Assembly: GCF_964213995.1 (NCBI RefSeq)
Contig: NC_135811.1
Location: 48,422,001 to 48,486,000 of the forward strand
Length of the DNA: 64,000 nucleotides
Origin: Mustelus asterias
Taxonomy: Eukaryota
Reading direction: 5' to 3'
Part shown: in pieces, positions 19,996-62,299 of the stretch
Position numbering within the stretch: the first letter of the stretch is position 1
Layout: every line of letters begins with the position of its first letter
Translations under genes and position numbers: made by a program
Notes under the pieces: model-generated
Told to the model about the DNA's origin: nothing
Databases searched by the model: none
Seen by the model: the letters and a program-made list of their open reading frames with translations, nothing else

Positions 19996-20335
19996 GGCGG
20001 CACGGTAGCACAGTGGTTAGCACTGCTGCTTCACAGCTCCAGGGTCCCGGGTTCGATTCCCGGCTCGGGTCACTGTCTGTGTGGAGTTTGCACATTCTCC
20101 TCGTGTTTGCGTGGGTTTCCTCCGGGTGCTCCGGTTTCCTCCCACAGTCCAAAGATGGGCGGGTTAGGTTGATTGGCCAGGTTAAAAATTGCCCCTTAGA
20201 GTCCTGGGATGCATAGGTTAGAGGGATTAGTGGGTAAATATGTGGGGGTAGGGCCTGGGTGGGATTGTGGTCGGTGCAGACTCGATGGGCCGAATGGCCT
20301 CCTTCTGCACTGTAGGGTTTCTATGATTTCTATGA
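19996..20335 (+). mobile_element. HE1 V-SINE (CR1 tail)
   Basis: Full-length copy. Confidence 0.9.
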
Positions 20336-20408
20336 GACCACTCCTTTTAATTTCCCACCAAGTTATCCATTATAATCAACGTATTTGTTTAATTCTATGA
20401 AATGCTGT

Positions 20409-23487: not shown

Positions 23488-23774
23488 GGGTGTTTTATTT
23501 AAACTGGGTTTGCTCTGCCTGGCTCAGCACTGTGTTTGAATGTGGCCCTTCCTGTTACAATTAAAGTAAACAAAATCTTTGCAATTGCACTAGTCCTGGG
23601 GTTGGTCTCCCCCACATTTGTAGCACTCATCATAATTCCTGGGTTGTCAGCCCAATTTCTTCCCTTGTTTCTGTCCCCGATCTGACTCCTGGGATCTCTG
23701 TTCAACCACCTCTGTGCCTGTCACTTGAGGTCCTGGTCTCACAGCCGTTTCCCTCCAAAGTTGATTCACCTCCC

Positions 23775-24072
23775 TGATGCGCGATATAACACACGAGAGG
23801 CGTGATGTACTCAGGAAATAAAGGCTTTTATTGCCAACAATAACAGAGCTACCATATACAGTATTCGATCCCAGACTAAAGGGTCACCAGGCAGAGCAGT
23901 GACCTTTATACCTCTCCCAGGAGGCGGAGCCGACTGGGGTGTACCATAACAACTATATTAACAGGTAGAACAGCCCAACCCTAACCCAAACAGTAACATA
24001 TCTACAGACTCATAGTACTGGCCAGATCATGGGTCAGCACTACCTGGTGGGAACCAACAATGGTTCACCACA
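23775..24072 (-). repeat. 3' LTR of Gypsy A
   Basis: Direct repeat of 28192-28489; PPT aaaggaggggtgaa immediately upstream on the minus strand. Confidence 0.95.
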
Positions 24073-24135
24073 TTCACCCCTCCTTTGAAAACAAAGGCCG
24101 GCGGGGTACAAAACACAGAACAATTGTTCATCTGT

Positions 24136-27100
24136 CTATAAGTTCAAACGGTCTGGGGGACCGCACCGTCGCTGTGACCTCCTCAACACCGGCGATGACA
24201 CCGGTTCAGGCAATCGCGGTGACGTTCTCTCCAAGGCGGTGTCCAGCGACTCCTCCAGTTCCTCACGGGCCGGTAGACCCCGAGGTGGTGACAATCCGCT
24301 GAACTCGGGCACGCCTTGAAGTGGCGACCATCTCCTGGACTCAGGCAAGCTGTACACGGGAGTAAGAGGGTTAAGTGGTGGTCCCGATACTGCCCGCGCC
24401 GTGTCAGGAGGGGAAATAATGGTTGGGGGGTCCCTAACAGGAGGTGTGGGAGCGACAGTCGTTTCCAAGCCCCCTGCTGGCGCCAGATCTCGAATCGAGA
24501 CTGTGTCCTCTCGCCCGTCAGGATATGCCACGTAGGCATACTGAGGGCTGGCGTGGAGGAGATGGACCTGTTCAACCAAAGGGTTGGACTTGCGGGTCCT
24601 AACATGTCGCCGCAGGAGGACAGGTCCTGAGTACGTCAACCAAGACGGTAATGAGGTCCCCGAGGAAGACTTCCGAGGGAATGAAAACATTCTCTCATGA
24701 GGAGTAGCGTTGGTTGCCGTACACAGGAGTGAGCGTATGGAGTGGAGCGCATCAGGGAGTACCTCTTGCCAACGGGAGACTGGAAGACCTTTAGACCTCA
24801 ACGCCAGTAAGACAGCCTTCCAGACTGTAGCATTCTCACGTTCGACCTGTCCATTACCCCTTGGGTTGTAGCTCGTGGTTCTACTAGAGGCAATCCCATA
24901 TGAGAGCAGGTATTGCCTCAAGTCATCGCTCATGAACAACGAGCCCCTATCGCTGTGGATATAACAGGGGTAACCGAACAGAGTGAAAAGATCACGAAAT
25001 GCCTTGGTAACCGTGGCAGCGGTCATATCAGAACAGGGAATGACAAAGGGGAATCGTGAGTACTCATCAACCACATTGAGGAAGTACACATTCCGATCTG
25101 TCGAGGGAAGGGGGCCCTTAAAGTCCACACTCAATCTTTCGAATGGACGAGTGGCCTTAACGAGTTGTGCCCTGTCAGGTCGGTAGAAGTGCGGTTTGCA
25201 TTCCGCGCATACCCGGCAGCTTCTGGTTATGGACCTGACATCCTCCACCGAGTAGGGTAGATTCCGGGCTTTTATGAAGTGGAAGAGCCGAGTGACCCCT
25301 GGATGGCAGAGGTCATTGTGGAGAGCCTGCAATCGATTCTCCTGCATACTAACGCATGTTCCACGCGACAGGGCATCCGAGGGCTCGTTGAGCTTCCCTG
25401 GACGATACATGATATCATAATTGTAGGTGGAGAGTTCGATTCTCCACCTCAAGATCTTATCATTCTTGATCTTACCCCATAACGTGTTGTTGAACATGAA
25501 CGTCACGGACCGCTGGTCCGTGAGCAGAGTGAACCGTTTTCCTGCCAAGTAATGGCGCCAATGCCGAACGGCCTCCACAATGGCCTAGGCCTCCTTTTCC
25601 ACCGCCGAATGTCGAATTTCAGGGCCTTGGAGGGTGCGAGAGAAAAAGGCGACGGGCCTGCCCACCTGGTTAAGTGTGGCAGCCAGGGCGAAATCAGATG
25701 CATCACTCTCCACCTGGAAGGGGATGGACTCATCGATAGCATGCATCGTGGCTTTCGCGATGTCGGCTTTTATTCTTGCAAAGGCTAAGCGAGCCTCTGG
25801 TGCGAGGGGAAAAGAGGGAGACTTGATGATCGGACGGGCTTTGTCCGCGTAATTGGGAACCCACTGTGCGTAGTATGAGAAGAAGCCTAAGCATCTTCTC
25901 AGTGCTTTGACGCTAGTGGGCAGGGGATGTTCGAGGAGAGGACGCATACGGTCTGGATCAGGGCCAAGGACCCCGTTTTCCACCACGTATCCGAGGATAG
26001 CTAGGCGGCGCGTGCGAAAAACACACTTCTCCCTGTTGTAGGTCAGATTCAGGCGAGATGCAGTGCGTAAGAATCTAAGAAGGTTGGCATCGTGGTCCTG
26101 CTGGTCATGGCCGCAGATGGTGACGTTATCCAGGTACGGGAAGGTAGCCTGCAGTCCGTTCTGGTCCACCATTCGGTCCATAGCACGCTGGAGACCGAGA
26201 CCCCATTCGTGACACCAAAAGGAACCCTTAAAAAATGGTACAGGCGACCATCCGCCTCAAAGGCCGTGTATTGTCGGTCCTCTGGGCGAATGGGGAGCTG
26301 GTGGTAAGCAGATTTTAAGTCGATGGTGGAGAACACCCGGTACTGCGCAATCTGGTTGACCATGTCAGATATGCGCGGGAGGGGATACGCATCCAGCTGC
26401 GTGTATCTGTTAATGGTCTGACTATAGTCTATGACCATCCGGGGTTTGTTCCCATTCTTAACCACCACGACTTGCGCTCTCCAAGGACTAGCGCTAGGTT
26501 GGATGATCCCTTCCTTGAGGAGCCGCTGAACTTCAGATCGAATGAAGATCCGATCCTCAGCGCTGTAACACCTGCTCTTTGTTGCGATGGGCTTGCAGCC
26601 TGGCACGAGATTCTGGAACAGGGAGGGTGTGGTAATCCTAAGCGTTGAGAGACTACATGTGGAGCGTGTTGGGCAATTTAGAGGCTGCGGGTCTCCCACT
26701 GAAAGCGGAGGGAGTGGCCCACCGTACTGCAGGGTTACACTCTTCAAGTGGACCATAAAATCTAGTCCTAGGAATATTGGCGCGCAAAGGTGTGGTAACA
26801 CAAGGAGCTTGAAGTTCTTGTAAACCGTGCCCTGCACCGTCAGATTGACCACGCAACTCCCTAGCACGGTGACAGACCGGGACCTTGACGCCATCGAAAT
26901 TGTCTGCTTGACAGTTCGAATCTGGAGACCACACCGCTTCACGGTGTCTGGGTAAATGAAGCTTTCCGTGCTCCCGCTGTCAAACAAACAATAAATCGGG
27001 CGTTTGTTTACCTGTATGTCCATCATGGACTTGTCGAGTCTGTGAGGCTTGGCCTGGTCCAGGATGATCGACGCCACCGTTGGTTCGTGGGCGCAACTGC

Positions 27101-28130
27101 AGGCAGCTGAGATGGTTGATGACGACCCCTGCTGGTCATTCGCGGTCGGTGCCGACCAAAATGGCTGCCCCCATAGGTCGCACGTGGACGATGGCGCCAG
27201 AACCTGCGGCCCCTGCAGGTCGCACGTGTCTTGCGACTCCGTCGTTCGGAATGGCGACGTCCTGGAGTCGCACGTGGTAGAAGACCTTGAAGATGCAGAA
27301 GACAAGGAGGCCGGCTCCGGGGAGTCACACGCCGCACTGCTGTTCTTGGATGGAAGTTTGGACCGACAGACCTTGGAATAGTGCCCCTTCTTGCCGCAGG
27401 CGGAGCACAACACTGCTTTTGCTGGACATCGCTGCCGAGGGTGTTTCACCCCCCCACAGAAGTAACACCGCGGGCCACCTGGAGCTGCTGCCGTCATCAG
27501 GTCCGAGGCTGGGAACGCAATCGCGCAGTTTTTCGGTCCCGCTGAATGAAGTGGGGTCTGTGACTGCCCCTGCCACGCTGTCTCCACGTGGTCGTCGGGG
27601 TACATCGCCAGACTTTTGGAGGCCGTTTCTAGAGCGTCAGCTAACTCTATGGATTTAGTGAGATCGAGGTTACCTTGCTCCAACAGCCGAAGGCGGATGT
27701 ACGACGAGCCGATTCCCGCCACGAACGCATCTCGAGCTAGGTCGTTCATGTACTGGTCTGCCGACACTGACTTGCAGTTGCAGGCTCTGGCTAGCTACTG
27801 AAGCTCACACGCGTACTGTTCCGTCGTTTCGCCGGGCTGCCGCCGTCGAGTGGCTAGAAGGTATCGAGCATGGATCTCATTCGGCGGTTTGTTGTATCGC
27901 TTCTTGAGAAACTCGAGGGCCCCTTTGTAGTCGGTGGCCCCACGGATCGCTAGGTATACAGCGTCGCTTACCCTCGTGTGGAGAACCCGGAGTCTGTCGG
28001 CGTCGTCGGTGACCGCTGTGGAGGCGTCGAGGTAATCCTGGAAACACTTCAACCAGTGGTTGAAAGTGTTCGATGCTCCCGCCGCACGTGGGTCCAACGT
28101 AAGCCGTTCGGGTTTAAGCATTTGCTCCAT
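24136..28130 (-). pseudogene. Single gag-pol ORF of Gypsy A with three lesions (TAG 27795, frameshift ~26190, TAG 25585)
   Basis: Double CCHC knuckle, PR LFDSGS, RT PFG/YLDN, RH DASD, IN HHCC and D-D-E. Confidence 0.93.
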
Positions 28131-28175
28131 GTTTTCTTTGTCGTTTTTTTTTCAAAACAAAAAAAAAGAATTTAC

Positions 28176-28190
28176 TTGTTGGCAATAAAA
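28176..28190 (-). promoter_or_regulatory. Non-tRNA PBS-position sequence of A, complementary to its own LTR (28243-28257)
   Basis: Sense TTTTATTGCCAACAA, 1 nt from the LTR end; no TGG. Confidence 0.75.
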
Positions 28191-28191
28191 T

Positions 28192-28489
28192 TGATGCCCC
28201 ATATAACACACGAGAGGCGTGATGTACTCGGGAAATAAAGGCTTTTATTGCCAACAATAACAGAGCTACCATATACAGTATTCGATCCCAGACTAAAGGG
28301 TCACCAGGCAGAGCAGTGACCTTTATACCTCTCCCAGGAGGCGGAGCCAACTGGGGTGTACCATAACAACTATATTAACAGGTAGAACAGCCCAACCCTA
28401 ACCCCAACAGTAACATATCTACAGACTCATAGTACTGGCCAGATCATGGGTCAGCACTACCTGGTGGGAACCAACAATGGTTCACCACA
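28192..28489 (-). repeat. 5' LTR of Gypsy A (TATAAA at 28322-28327, AATAAA at 28244-28249, minus strand)
   Basis: Direct repeat with promoter and poly(A) motifs. Confidence 0.95.
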
Positions 28490-28679
28490 CTCCCCCTCTG
28501 GCCACACTGTAGTTCGAAGGCGTCCTTTTTGGTGCTTTCAGTGGCTTGAGCTCATTCTATTGCTCTGTCCAGGGATAGCTTTGTTTCTGCTAACAGCTTC
28601 CTTTGGATATTCAGGTTGTTAATGTCGCAAACCAATTAATTTCCCCGTGGCGTAACAGGAACCGGAAACGTTCAGCACT

Positions 28680-29410
28680 ATACCCCCTCATTAAACCCCC
28701 TTCACCTCACTCCCACACCCCTTCAATAAAACCTCCACCTCACCCCCACACCCCCTCAATAAACCCTCTTCGCCTCACCCCCACACCCCCCTCAATAAAC
28801 CCCCTTTGCTTCACCCCACACCCTCTCAATAAACCTCCTTCGCTTCACCCCCACACCCCCTGAATAAACCCCCTTTGTCTCACCCCCAAACCCCCTCAAT
28901 AAACCCCCTTTGCTTCACCCCCTCAATAAACCCCCTTCACCTCACCCCTAAACCCCCTCAATAAACCCCCTTTGCCTCATCCCCACACCCTCTCAATAAA
29001 CCTCCTTCGCTTCACCCCCACACCCCCTGAATAAACCCCCTTTGTCTCACCCCCAAACCCCCTCAATAAACCCCTTTGCCTCACCCCCACACCTCCTCAA
29101 TAAACCCTCCTCCTTACCCCTAAATCCCCTCAATAAACCCCCTCCTCCCCCACATCTCCTCAATCAACCCCCTCCACCTCATCCCCAAATCCCCTCAATA
29201 AACCTCCTCTGCCTCAACACCAAACCCCTTCAATAAACCCTCCATCTTTTCCCTAAACCCCCTCAATAAACCCTCACCTCATCCCTAAACTCCCTCAATA
29301 AACCCACTTGCCTCATCCCTAAAGCCCCTCAATAAAAGCCCTCATCACTAAATCCCCACCTGCACTCTTAAACCCCTCACAATAACTAACCCGCTCAATA
29401 AAACCCCAAA
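28680..29410. repeat. C-rich minisatellite, ~33-35-bp unit, about 20 copies
   Basis: Unit ~ccccctcaataaaccccctttgcctcaccccaca. Confidence 0.9.
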
Positions 29411-32687: not shown

Positions 32688-33011
32688 GGGGTGGCACGGT
32701 GGCACAGTGGTTAGCACTGCTGCCTCACAGCTTCAGAGATCTGGGTTCGATTCCCGGCTTGGGTCACTGTCTGTGTGGAGTTTGCACATTCTCCCCATGT
32801 CTGCATGGGTTTCCTCCAGGTGTTCTGGTTTCCTCCCACAGTCCAAAGATGTGCGCGGGTTAGATGGATTGGCCATGCTAAATTGCCCCTTAGTGTCAGG
32901 GGATTAGCAGGCTCAATACGTTACGGGGTCAGAGCCTGGGTGGGATTGTTGTCAGTGCAGGCTTGATGGGCCGAATGGCCTCATTCTGCACTGGGATTCT
33001 ATGATTCTATG
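32688..33011 (+). mobile_element. HE1 V-SINE
   Basis: Full-length copy. Confidence 0.9.
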
Positions 33012-33360
33012 AAATATTATGGAATAGAATATGGAAACTGTGTGCACAGAGGCAGGCACATGCCTGGTCAGCTTTGTCGGCGGGACTTTGAATTTGTAGC
33101 TATGGGACTTCTGCCATGACAGAAAGCATCTCGATCGTGGCAAAAATCCCAGCTATCGTTGAGAAAAGATTTAAATCTGTTTTGTTTCACGGACAGGAGA
33201 GAGATGCTCGAATGGTTTCCCCTTTTCCCACCTCTCGACTGTCCACAGCAAGATGTGTCTGAAATGTTTCAACCCCCTTGAGTGTTGCGGTTCTAGAACA
33301 GACACAAGATAGATTTTCTTGTAAGTTTAAACAAAGGAAGAATTAATGTTTATTTCTCAA

Positions 33361-38573: not shown

Positions 38574-38889
38574 TGATGCGCTATTCAAACACGAGGCTTG
38601 AAGCTCAGTAAATGAAAGGCTTTTATTTACTGTAACGAAGCTACCAGAACTTATATACACTATCCCAGACTGAAGGGGTCCCGGCCAGAGCAGGGACTCT
38701 TATACCTCTCCCAGGAGGCGGAGCCCAACTGGGATGTGCCACAACACTACAGTACAAAGGTGTAACAACCCCACCCTAACCCCAACAGCAACAATAGCAC
38801 AACCCAACAGTAACATATGTACATCCTTGTAGTACTGGCCAGCCCCTGGCTCAGCACTATCCAGTGGGAACCAACGATGGTTCACCACA
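38574..38889 (-). repeat. 3' LTR of Gypsy B
   Basis: TG...CA; direct repeat of 42981-43291. Confidence 0.95.
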
Positions 38890-38952
38890 TTCACCCCTCC
38901 TTTGAGAACAAAGGCCGGCGGGGTACAAAAAACAGAATAAAGTGTCAGCAGT

Positions 38953-41900
38953 CTATAAGTTCAGACGGTCAGGGGGACCGCACCGTCGTTGTGACCTCCT
39001 CAATACCAGCGGTAACACCGGAGTAGGCACTTGCGGTGGCGTTCTCCCCAAGGCAGCGTCCAGCTGTTCTTCCATGGACTCACAGGCCGGTTGACCCTGA
39101 GGTGACGGTAGTCCATGGGATCCTGACCCGCCCTGCGGTGGCGACCATCTTCTGGGCTCAGGCAAGCTGTACATGGGAGTAAAATGGTTAAGCAATGGTC
39201 CCGATGCTGCCTGCGCCGTGTCCGGGGAAGAAACAAGAGATAAAGGGTTTGTTACCGGGGGTATGGGAGTGACAGGGGTTGCTACGTCCCCTGCTGGCGC
39301 CAGGTCTCGGATCGAGACCGTGTCCTCTCGCCCGTCAGGGTATGCCACATAGGCATACTGAGGGTTGGCGTGGAGGAGATGGACCTGTTCGACCAACGGG
39401 TCGGACTTGCGGGCCCTTACATGTCGCCGCAGGAGGACGGGTCCTGAGTACGTCAACCAAGATGGTAATGAGGTCCCCGAGGAAGACTTCCGAGGGAATG
39501 AGAACATCCTCTCATGGGGAGTAGCATTGGTTGCCGTACACAGGAGGGAGCGAATAGAATGGAGCGCATCAGGGAGCACCTCTTGCTAACGGGAGACTGG
39601 AAGGCCTTTTGACTTCAACGACAGTAAGACAGCCTTCCAGACTGTAGCATTCTCACGTTCCACCTGTCCGTTACCCCTAGGGTTGTAGCTCGTGGTCCTA
39701 CTAGAGGCAATCCCGTATGAGAGCAGGAATTGCCTCAAGTCATCGCTCATGAATGACGAGCCCCTGTCGCTATGGATGTAGCCGGGGTACCCGAACAGGG
39801 TAAAGAGATCACGGAATGCCTTGATAACCGTGGCAGCGGATGTATCAGAGCAGGGAACAACAAAAGGGAACCGAGAGTACTCGTCAATGATATTGAGGAA
39901 GTACACATTCCGATCTGTTGAGGGAAGGGGGCCCTTAAAATCGACACTCAGTCTCTCGAAGGGACGAGTGGCCTTGACTAAATGTGCCCGGTCAGGTTGG
40001 TAAAAGTGCGGTTTGCATTCCGCGCAAACCCGACAGCTCCTTGTTACTGACCTGACGTCCTCCACCGAGTAAGGCAGGTTGCGGGCTTTTATAAAGTGGT
40101 AGAGCCGAGTGACCCCAGGATGGCACAGGTCATTATGGAGGGCGTGCAAACGGTCCTCCTGTATACTAGCACATGTTCCACGCGAGAGGGCATCCGAGGG
40201 CTCATTGAGTTTCCCTGGACGGTACATGATGTCGTAGTTATAGGTGGAGAGTTAAATTCTCCACCGCAAGATCTTGTCATTCTTGATCTTGCCCCTCTGT
40301 GTGTTGTTAAACATGAACGCCACGGACCGCTGGTCAGTGATCAGGGTGAACCGTTTTCCCGCCAAGTAATGGCGCCAGTGCTTGACGGCCTCCACAATGG
40401 CCTGGGCCTCCTTTTCCACCGCTGAATGCCGAATTTCGGGGCCTTGGAGGGTGCGGGAAAAAAATGCGACGGGCCTGCCCGCCTGGTTAAGTGTGGCGGC
40501 CAGGGCGAAATCAGATGCATCGCTCTCCACCTGAAAGGGGATGGACTCGTCTACAGCGTGCATCGTAGCTTTCGTGATGTCGGCTTTCAATTTATCGAAG
40601 GCCAATCGGGCCTCTGGCGTTAAGGGAAAAGTCGTGGACTGAATGAGCTGACGGGCTTTATCTGCGTAGTTGGGAACCCACTGTGCATAATAAGAGAAGA
40701 AGCCTAAGCATCTTCTCAGTGCTTTTGCACTAGCAGGTAAAGGAAGTTCAGAAAGGGGGCGCATACGGTCTGGATCAGGGCCAATGACCCCGTTTTCCAC
40801 CACGTATCCTAGGATGGCTAAACGGCGCGTACGAAACACACACTTCTCCCTGTTGTAGGTCAAGTTCAGGCGAGATGCAGTGCGTAGGAAGTTCAGGAGA
40901 TTTGTGTCGTGGTCTTGCTGGTCATGGCCGCAAATGGTGACATTATCCAGGTACGGGAAGGTAGCCCGCAGCCCGTTCTGGTCCACCATTCGGTCCATAG
41001 CACGCTGGAAGACCGAGACCCCATTGGTGACACCAAAGGGAACCCTGAGAAAGTGATACAAGCGACCATCCGCCTCAAAAGCTGTGTATTGTCGGTCCTC
41101 TGGGCGAATGGGGAGTTGGTGGTAGGCAGACTTGAGGTCTATGGTGGAGAACACCCGATACTGCGCAATCTGATTGACCATATCAGATATGCGCGGGAGG
41201 GGATACGCATCCAGCTGCATATATCGGTTAATGGTCTGACTGTAGTCAATGACCATCCGGGGTTTGTTCCCGCTCTTGACCACCACGACCTGCGCTCTCC
41301 ACGGACTAGCACTGGGTTGTATGATCCTTTCTTTGAGGAGCCGCTGAACCTCAGATCTAATGAAGATCCGATCCTCAGTGCTGTAACGCCTACTTTTAGT
41401 CGCGATGGGCTTGCAGCCTGGCACAAGATTCTGGAACAAGGAGGGTGTGGTGATCTTCAGCGTCGAGAGGCTGCAGGCTGCGTTGGGCAATTTGGAGGCT
41501 GCTGCTGTTTTCCCACTGCCAGTGAAGGGAGTGGCCCACCGTACTATAGGATTACACTCCTCAAGTGGACCATGAAATTTAGTCCGAGAAGTATTGGCGC
41601 GCAAAGATACGGCAACACAAGGAGCTTGAAACGCTCGTAAACTGTGCCTTGCACCTTCAAGGTTACCACGCAACTCCCTAGCACGGCAACAGACTGGGAC
41701 CTTGATGCCATAGAGATTGTCTGTTTGGCAGGTTGAATCTGGAGTCCACGCCGCTTCACAGTGTCTGGGTGGATAAAGCTCTCAGTGCTCCCGCTATCAA
41801 ACAGACAATAAATCACGTGGTCATTTACCTGGATATTCATCATAGATTTGTCAAGTCTATGAGGCTTGGCCTGGTCCAGGGTGATCGACGCCACCGTTGG

Positions 41901-42932
41901 TTCATGAGCGCCACTGCAGGCAGCTGAAGTCGATGAGGAGGACCCCTGCTGGTCGTTCGTGGTCAGTGTCGACCAACATGGCTGCCCCCATGAGTCGCAC
42001 GTGGGTGAGGGCGCCAAACTCAGCGACCCCTGGTGGTCATACTCCTCCAACTCCGTCGACCGTAATGGCGTCGTCCTGATCTCGCATGTGGACGAACCCC
42101 GCGATGACTTCGACGATGAAGACCCGAGCTCTGAAGAATCGCAGGCCGCACTGCCGTTCCTGGGTTTAGATCGGCACACTTTTGAATAATGCCCTTTTTT
42201 ACCGCATGCGGTGCACAACACAGCTTTAGCGGGACACTTTTGCCGAGTATGCTTCGCTCCTCCACAGAAATAGCACTGCGGGCCGCCCGGGGCTGCTGCC
42301 GTCGTCTGGCCCGAATGGGAGCACGCCATTACGCAGCATTTCGAACCCGAGGGACGAGGAGGGATTAGCGACTGCTCCTGCCACGTTGTCTCCACATGGT
42401 CCTCCGGATATAATACTAAGCTTTTGGAGGCCGTCTCGAGCATCTCTGCTAACTCGATGGCCTGGGTAAGATTAAGATTACCCTTCTCCAACAGTTTAAG
42501 TCGAATGTACGACGATCTGACCACAAACGCATCTCGGGCGAGGTCGTTCATGCTCTGCTCAGCCGACACAGCTTTGCAGTCACAGCCCCTGGCTAGCTGT
42601 AGGAGCTCGTTCGCATATTCCTCCATCGTTTCGCCAGACTGCCGTCGTCGAGTGGCTAGGAGGTAACGAGCGTGTATCTCATTAGGTGGTTTGGTATAGC
42701 GCTTCTTCAGAAGCTCGAGGGCCTTAGTATAATCGGTGGCCGCACGGATCGCGAGGTAGACAGTGTCACTTACCCTCCCATGGCGGACCCGGAGTCTGTC
42801 ATCATCTGTGGTGACCGCTGCGGAGGCTGCCAGGTAGTCTTCGAAACACTTCAGCCAGTGGTCGAAGGTGTTAGAAGCGCCCACCGCACGTGGATCTAGC
42901 GTAAGGCGTTCCGGCTTCAGAATTTGCTCCAT
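38953..42932 (-). pseudogene. gag-pol of Gypsy B (stops at 41544, 40252, 39586; frameshift ~41480)
   Basis: Collinear with A across gag, PR, RT (YLDN), RH and IN. Confidence 0.93.
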
Positions 42933-42966
42933 ACTCTCTCTCTTTTTTTTCGACGAGAGTTTAACG

Positions 42967-42979
42967 ACAGTAAATAAAA
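42967..42979 (-). promoter_or_regulatory. Non-tRNA PBS-position sequence of B, complementary to its own LTR (43028-43040)
   Basis: Sense TTTTATTTACTGT, 1 nt from the LTR end. Confidence 0.75.
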
Positions 42980-42980
42980 T

Positions 42981-43291
42981 TGATGCGCTATTCAGACACG
43001 AGGCTTGAAGCTCAGTAAATGAAAGGCTTTTATTTACTGTTAACGAAGCTACCAGAACTTATATACACTATCCCAGACTGAAGGGGTCCCGGCCAGAGCA
43101 GGGACTCTTATACCTCTCCCAGGAGGCGGAGCCCGACTGGGATGTGCCACAACACTACAGTACAAAGGTGTAACAACCCCACCCTAACCCCAACAGCAAC
43201 AATAGCACAACCCAACATATGTACATCCTTGTAGTACTGGCCAGCCCCTGGCTCAGCACTATCCAGTGGGAACCAACGATGGTTCACCACA
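42981..43291 (-). repeat. 5' LTR of Gypsy B
   Basis: Direct repeat; TATAAG at 43107-43112 (minus). Confidence 0.95.
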
Positions 43292-61371: not shown

Positions 61372-61684
61372 AGGCAGCACGGTGGTTAGCACTGCTGCCT
61401 CACAGCGCCAGGGACCGGGGTTCGAATCCAGCCTTGGGTGACTGTCCATATGGAGTCTGCACGTTCTCCCCGTGTCTGCGTGGGTTTCCTGCAGGTGCTC
61501 CGGTTTTCTCCTACAGTCCAAAGATGTGCTGGTTAGGTTGATCGGCCATGCTAAATTGTCCCTTAGTGTCAGGGGGATTAGCAGGGTAAATATGTAGGGT
61601 TACAGGGATAGGGTCGGGTGGGATTGTTGTTGGTGCATGCTTGATGGGCTGAATGGCCTCCTTCTGTACTGTAGGAATTCTATG
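61372..61684 (+). mobile_element. HE1 V-SINE
   Basis: Full-length copy. Confidence 0.9.
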
Positions 61685-62299
61685 AAGGTGCTCTTTGATT
61701 TAACATCAGCTGTCCATCTTATAAGCAGATCTTGCAACCCCTACAATCCCAAGTGCAACATTTTTGCCCCAGTACTTACTTCACAAGAAGGATTAATATG
61801 TACATATACAACTACTTCAATCTGACACGTGCTGCCATTTGTGTTCCCTCTGTCTTTAGGGACAGTAGAATGAAAAGCATGCTGGTGATTTGAGGTATAT
61901 TGTAAACAGGATTATCTGGCATTAAATACATGACTGAACAGGACACAGTTTTCACAATGAGGCTAACTGATTTCTTCCAACATCCTTGTGGTGATTGTCT
62001 CTTCAAGGGCAACACAGCAGAGTAAGGATCACATAGCTTGCGTGACCAATCGGGACTCAGAGTGTGGAATCACGCCATGGTGAGAGAGGCTCCTAGGCAG
62101 GCATTTTGGGAGCTAGATACAGCCCATGCAAGTTACTGTACAATTCTTATTAATAAATACCTTTTGTGAATGAAGTCTTTGGAAGTGCACCTTTCCAACC
62201 CTGTACCATTAAAATGAATGTAGCACTGCCTCAGTGAACTCACTTCTGAGCTGGTTAATCTCAAAGCTAACTGTTCGGATCTTCTTCTTTTGCATTCAG

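Follow-up and report, generated by a model that had tools for sequence, protein, structure and literature searches.

To our knowledge, the common view is that a host tRNA is needed by animal LTR elements other than those of the Tf1/sushi group. Tf1 and Tf2 of Schizosaccharomyces pombe, Tj1 of S. japonicus and the Tf1/sushi group as a whole instead carry a primer site complementary to their own LTR directly after the 5' LTR, and no tRNA is involved. For Tf1, the accessible parts of three papers (PMC7175516, PMC4600332, PMC5341516) describe the transcript's first 11 bases as the primer, with an RNase H cut between bases 11 and 12. Plant Tcn1 (Ty3/gypsy, a chromovirus clade) and plant TAR (Ty1/copia) are predicted self-primers in the accessible text of Neumann et al. 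2019 (PMC6317226), which uses a criterion of at least 10 bp of complementarity located 0-5 bp after the 5' LTR and names no animal non-chromovirus case. The literature available in part to us places self-priming in Tf1/sushi, Tcn1 and TAR, and holds proposals of novel routes for Skipper and GalEa.

We analysed a 64,000-nt stretch of Mustelus asterias DNA (the window; NC_135811.1, positions 48,422,001 to 48,486,000), which contains a 4.7 kb Ty3/Gypsy element, element A, on the minus strand at 23775-28489. As in the Tf1/sushi group, its primer site lies immediately after the 5' LTR and is complementary to that LTR. Its features are as follows.

28192-28489, minus strand: 5' LTR, 298 nt, TG...CA
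23775-24072, minus strand: 3' LTR, with the arm copy at 23826-23840
28490-28494 and 23770-23774: 5-bp target duplication, GGGAG
24073-24086, minus strand: polypurine tract, ending AA directly before the 3' LTR
24136-28130, minus strand: gag-protease-RT-RNase H-integrase; gag with two CCHC knuckles; without a chromodomain
28243-28257, minus strand: LTR arm, candidate self-primer, ending AATAAAA
28176-28190, minus strand: primer-binding position, exact 15-nt complement of the LTR arm (28257-28243)
28191-28242, minus strand: 52-nt loop (effective R plus U5), predicted template of strong-stop DNA, starting with the conserved RCC

The Ty3/Gypsy assignment follows from the domain order (protease-RT-RNase H-integrase), the TG...CA LTRs, the polypurine tract and the 5-bp duplication. 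The best PDB match was Ty3 RT (E 8e-50), and the acidic residues of the RNase H aligned with their Ty3 counterparts. The two LTRs differ by 5 substitutions. Stops interrupt gag and RNase H, and a frameshift interrupts RT, leaving the coding region broken.

The original prediction, that no TGG follows the 5' LTR and that the primer site is instead an exact 15-nt complement of the LTR closing a 52-nt loop, was confirmed: the terminal CA is followed by one A (28191) and then by 28190-28176, which pairs with 28257-28243. By the measure used for Tcn1 and TAR in the accessible text of PMC6317226, this length and position place element A among predicted self-priming elements. A perfect 15-bp inverted repeat occurred in 0 of 300 dinucleotide shuffles of the family-A copy L002 searched over the same space (mean 6.4, maximum 11). 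Each of the 30 family-A copies fetched had both arms, and a single change was seen in 5 of these copies (by eye). Pair probability was at least 0.95 at 13 of the 15 pairs. The regional folding z-score over 166 nt around the stem was only -1.89, with 8 of 200 shuffles folding equally well. The pairing between primer site and LTR arm is a real feature of element A.

A second family in the window carries the same arrangement in different letters.

38574-43291, minus strand: element B, 81% identical to A, also broken; 5' LTR at 42981-43291
43040-43028 and 42979-42967, minus strand: arm and primer-binding position of element B, forming a 13-bp stem whose letters differ from those of A and are matched on both sides

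At first look the genome held 3464 candidate places for A and 2562 for B; 40 were scored and 30 fetched for each. The testable loci of family A had a perfect inverted repeat of at least 11 bp in 26 of 29 cases; for B the count was 27 of 30, for a third family, C, 17 of 29, and for another set of loci in this genome, in which some C loci recur, 21 of 30. One stem pair is altered on both sides in a subfamily of C, the family-A copy L228 shows a matched change on both sides of the stem, and each of the further families of this genome has its own matched version.

The same stem was found in distant relatives. A gag alignment search gave 125 confirmed metagenome loci, of which 80 were fetched, many of them redundant; 64 of the 80 could be tested for the stem and 16 could not. 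A perfect inverted repeat of at least 11 bp was present in 47 of the 64 testable loci compared with 2 of 640 shuffles, and it started no more than 4 nt from the CA in 45 of these 47. The 17 stem-less loci comprised 8 that resemble mutated copies and 9 without a recognisable upstream LTR (by eye). In 19 loci the downstream DNA was long enough for comparison: the LTR pair stopped exactly one base short of the primer site in 7 and within -2 to +3 of it in 6 more; the rest were truncated, overextended or without a second LTR.

Loci were collapsed to 30 families, 23 from metagenomes and 7 from this genome (L109, truncated, was dropped). Cognate arms and primer sites form stems of 12-18 bp, compared with a mean of 3.9 for non-cognate combinations, 14 of 870 of which reached at least 11. 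Pairing at stem positions 1-11 is built in, since stems were selected at 11 bp or more; position 12, which lies outside this threshold, pairs in 23/23 metagenome families against 8.1 expected, and pairing drops to chance at position 17. No G-U pair was seen at positions 1-14 in any of the 30 families. The arm's last letter is A in 30/30, and an RCC-like motif directly follows it (C second in 30/30, C third in 27/30). The family-by-family comparison of primer site with LTR that had been proposed as a check thus returned cognate stems with matched letters in 30 families, and comparison of the sequences gives good support to the view that pairing has been kept through covariation, both across families of this genome and in the metagenomes.

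The arm of element A ends in AAUAAA, as originally described, but the hexamer is not a requirement: a canonical poly(A) hexamer ends the arm in 21 of 30 families (7/7 of this genome and 14/23 from metagenomes) and is missing in nine, of which 4 have one unpaired in the loop. The stem can form only at the 5' end and covers the hexamer in those 21 families, which would suit a hairpin that mainly shields the 5' poly(A) signal against premature cleavage, with priming by another route. Because nine arms have no canonical hexamer, masking cannot be the whole function of the stem, and the four hexamers left unpaired in the loop argue the same way. A masking hairpin, moreover, could do without a fixed register to the LTR end and could tolerate G-U pairs; there is no other primer site, and the aberrant junctions described below show RT using the geometry of arm and primer site. 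We consider masking as the main role improbable, though the least so of the alternatives, and masking as a second job of the hairpin plausible.

Five patterns were used to search the genome for junctions between an LTR end and the arm plus upstream bases in reverse complement. This gave 27 such junctions, and reversed-pattern controls gave 0. In 18 of the 27, a whole or partial sense LTR precedes an inverted copy whose start lies at the arm end. An exact 5-bp duplication was present at the two U3 ends in 10 of the 15 aligned insertions of this type, so they were inserted by integrase. These 18 junctions agree with plus strong-stop DNA folding back once it had copied the primer.

The other 9 junctions begin with antisense U5. 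Eight of these, which belong to families A, B and C, continue as far as AGGCT, where seven switch back to their own U5 and one switches to approximately 600 nt of host sequence. Target duplications in these eight were exact over 5 bp in 6, had one mismatch in 1 and could not be checked in one. The AGGCT stop, the first break point, was not fixed by the search pattern. The last bases at the stop overlap microhomology in six insertions, and in two (L204 and L207) the final T has no element microhomology. L207 (G000:C12:94241146-94244170) is the insertion with the host sequence, which includes a partial SINE and lies between the strong-stop end and the fold-back. The ninth, L201 (G000:C1:150825746-150828770), breaks elsewhere, earlier, and has a 5-bp target duplication; an inverted gag duplication lies between its antisense U5 and its arm junction. 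The eight insertions place the following cut.

28243-28244, minus strand: putative RNA cut AAUAAA^AGCC, with the primer 3' end at 28244 and the template 5' end at 28243

A nick at this position accounts for every base, including the final T of L204 and L207. It leaves a 2-nt AT end after CA, mirroring the AA before the 3' LTR on the polypurine side. AAUAAA^AGCC is thus the likely RNA cut; like the Tf1 cut it would lie at the loop-side end of the duplex, to judge from 8 of the 9 aberrant insertions. The primer end had originally been put 1 nt from the LTR boundary, and the insertions suggest 2 nt instead, with a 14-bp duplex. The same letters would be expected if a plus-strand end frayed at the arm, copied primer-site bases and returned, so the junctions do not prove an RNA primer. 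L223, a single ambiguous case, ends after exactly 13 matching bases, and the element is not resumed within 9.4 kb. Most of the matches in searches for plus-strand products that end within the primer site belonged to other subfamilies. The minimum-energy folds of 25/30 families, a count made without a null model, show a predicted second helix beside the cut, which recalls the U5-IR-like stem of Lin and Levin 1998, as given in the title of that paper.

Our preferred reading, which we hold with considerable confidence, is Tf1-like self-priming in cis: the duplex of primer site and arm would prime the minus strand after an RNA cut at AAUAAA^AGCC, in a lineage without a chromodomain. The RNA 5' end would fold so that the arm pairs with the primer site, and a nick, likely made by the element's own RNase H, would free a 3' OH at the arm end. 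RT would then copy AT, followed by U5 and the loop, and halt at the nick, giving strong-stop DNA of approximately 53 nt. Transfer to the 3' end would rely on a short effective R that reaches from the nick to the poly(A) site, and this may explain the frequent hexamer at the arm end. Plus-strand strong-stop DNA would finally copy the primer and rebuild the primer site, and in this way arm and site would stay matched.

Priming could instead come from the arm copy at the genomic RNA's 3' end, which would be trimmed or cut behind AAUAAA and would anneal to the primer site. The hexamer at the arm end in 21/30 families would suit this, as would the inverted copies, which run into U3 in all the aberrant junctions read out but one (L213, which stops after 38 nt); such run-through would, however, also result from normal strand transfer, or if plus strong-stop DNA folded back. 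If a 3' primer were used, the 5' arm would be open to copying, but the minus-strand copies end at the arm/loop border in 8 of 9 cases, which is what a nicked 5' copy should give. Presumably, a cut at this point in the 3' copy would also take away the repeat on which transfer depends. The original suggestion of the 3' R copy as primer is therefore disfavoured, and we rate it as unlikely, marginally more so than masking.

A tRNA, tRNA fragment or other host RNA might also prime, the LTR match being incidental. TGG was absent from the primer site in all 30 families. The host tRNA scan, including internal fragments, that had been proposed as a check was made on a partial set of 117 tRNA calls of only 9 amino-acid types, and in this set the longest Watson-Crick run was 6 nt for A and 8 nt for B (10 and 12 with G-U). 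The 12-nt pairing, which lies between an internal stretch of a tRNA-Thr call and the B site with G-U allowed, is the point in favour of a host primer. Such a primer leaves it unexplained that the site varies among families and always follows the family's own LTR, and we give it very little weight. The tRNA-Lys and tRNA-Thr genes called include a large tandem array with a spacing of approximately 1.8 kb (G000:C16:97.26-98.64 Mb). Finally, the A/U-rich stem and the modest regional z-score could be cited for an assembly artefact or for an inverted repeat that arose by chance in A/T-rich sequence; both are excluded by the family data, namely the shuffle controls, the many independent copies and the covariation across families.

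Returning to self-priming in cis, we examined where the primer may start. Element A carries two candidate promoter motifs.

28320-28327, minus strand: putative TATA-like box, starting at 28327, 70 nt before the arm start
28292-28296, minus strand: initiator-like YYAGT, with the predicted start A at 28294, 33 nt after the TATA T

TATA lies 83-87 nt upstream of the arm end in 7/7 families of this genome and YYAGT 51-55 nt upstream in 6/7, so that unlike in Tf1 the predicted starts fall approximately 52 nt upstream of the arm end and approximately 37 nt upstream of the arm start. Family B has a second TATA 38 nt upstream. In the metagenome families no TATA was found at a common distance. In a manner resembling Tf1, an initiator-like AG stands exactly 11 nt before the arm end in 20/23 of them, in a TYAGT-like context, and in 2/7 families of this genome. 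This context resembles the initiator TCA(G/T)T(T/C) given in the accessible part of PMC3601003. The G at position 10 before the arm end is kept in 29/30 families. Pairing reaches 1-7 nt upstream of the AG, which argues against a strict transcript start there.

The original prediction placed the primer inside R. The conserved TATA in 7/7 own-genome families speaks for this, and the metagenome relatives look cap-proximal like Tf1. A haplotype test for a primer of approximately 52 nt was negative: in 14 LTR-plus-inverted-LTR insertions (L206, two-template throughout, was left out), differences were 29/560 at positions 16-55 and 59/1288 at positions 56-147 (p 0.63). For family A two possibilities are about equally likely: a short primer beginning within or close to the arm, and a longer fragment of approximately 51 nt that is extended 5' to the upstream TATA/initiator. 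The conserved TATA-initiator spacing and L211, a single case with a 4-nt block change at the predicted initiator, favour the longer fragment. Against it, a full copy would be expected to mismatch the leader at the second strand transfer. An internal primer is possible for family A on these motifs. An imperfect inverted repeat, in which a U3 segment matches bases just after the initiator, flanks the TATA in own-genome families (window 28290-28350 and 43060-43145, minus strand; L177, L193, L194); folds show it partly, and it could pair only in the 3' RNA copy.

The nearest named relatives of the element proteins are from sharks and rays, and the best 120 RT relatives came from sharks, rays, sea anemone, tunicate, sea cucumber, nematode and many assemblies. 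None were found among viral contigs. No chromodomain was detected in A or B, in the 120 RT relatives listed (precomputed Pfam) or in the 24 full-length members scanned. Unlike Tf1/sushi, all 24 full-length members were without matches to chromodomain, SH3_Tf2-1, Retrotrans_gag and Ty3_capsid, and the lineage further differs in its two CCHC knuckles, YXDN in RT, the stem of 12-18 bp and an arm often ending in the hexamer. The original proposal of priming without a tRNA in elements without a chromodomain is thus well supported by the covariation, the aberrant insertions and the Pfam results. YXDN replaces YXDD in 94 of the 120 RT relatives listed (P0040-P0159) and in the RT of A and B, and members with YXDD are scattered among the others in the tree. 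Retroviral RT needs the second aspartate of YXDD.

We built an RT-RNase H tree of 151 sequences (segments of at least 300 aa from proteins and at least 200 from loci; shorter ones were left out, as were long RT frames from the RVT_1 search, presumed to be LINEs). In this tree a long branch with support 1.0 separates a lineage of 89 sequences from the remaining 62 Gypsy RTs. B and the 16 loci that have both the stem and an RT are spread through a 54-tip subclade, and the stem is known within that subclade. A Chromo search of this genome gave 17 matches, the one fetched of which is not a retroelement, and no recognised chromovirus reference was found in the genome; chromoviruses may be rare here.

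The two CCHC knuckles in the gag of the lineage are presumably a Mag-like feature. With the Mag lineage and the Cigr-1 clade, as described in the accessible text of Thomas-Bulle et al. 2018 (PMC6238403), the lineage shares short LTRs, a wide metazoan range and, in the relatives, a gag-pol of approximately 1200-1300 aa. The tree holds no named Tf1, sushi, Mag or Cigr-1 sequence, and the Mag/Cigr-1 name is a lead only, no named reference having been aligned. PBS and primer have 0 occurrences in PMC6238403, and nothing on this lineage was found in the accessible text of PMC6088434, PMC11117352, PMC6934838, PMC5006619 and PMC10886601. No account of self-priming in this lineage was found in the full-text literature accessible to the search, which lay outside Repbase and key older papers.

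Self-priming itself is described for Tf1/sushi, plant Tcn1 and TAR, and an animal non-chromovirus lineage is most likely a variant of it. Repbase entries mention self-primed Gypsy families, which could lower the novelty. The lineage is widespread, with thousands of candidate places in one genome, and would escape annotation that requires a tRNA site. If it does self-prime, it would presumably be beyond the reach of silencing by 3' tRNA fragments. It also bears on whether hairpin priming is ancestral or has arisen repeatedly, and its integrated mis-copies yield a cut prediction at the level of single bases. Only tentatively, we suggest that a pan-animal non-chromovirus lineage evolved self-priming independently and that its shark-type branch moved the promoter upstream. 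The 5' primer would then be approximately 51 nt long, with its last 14 nt paired and the cut after AAUAAA, and one hairpin would hide the 5' poly(A) signal, make the primer and set the start of the transfer repeat.

Three further sequence features were seen in the window. In the family A leader, a T-run/A-run hairpin that varies in length stands after the primer site and ahead of the start codon (28142-28172, minus strand). A minisatellite of approximately 35-nt units with a TCAATAAACC core lies at 28670-29340; the outer end of element A's 5' LTR is 180 nt away. A tRNA-derived SINE, which we take to be of the HE1 type, is present in many copies on both strands (e.g., 20004-20340, 32698-33020 and 61373-61700).
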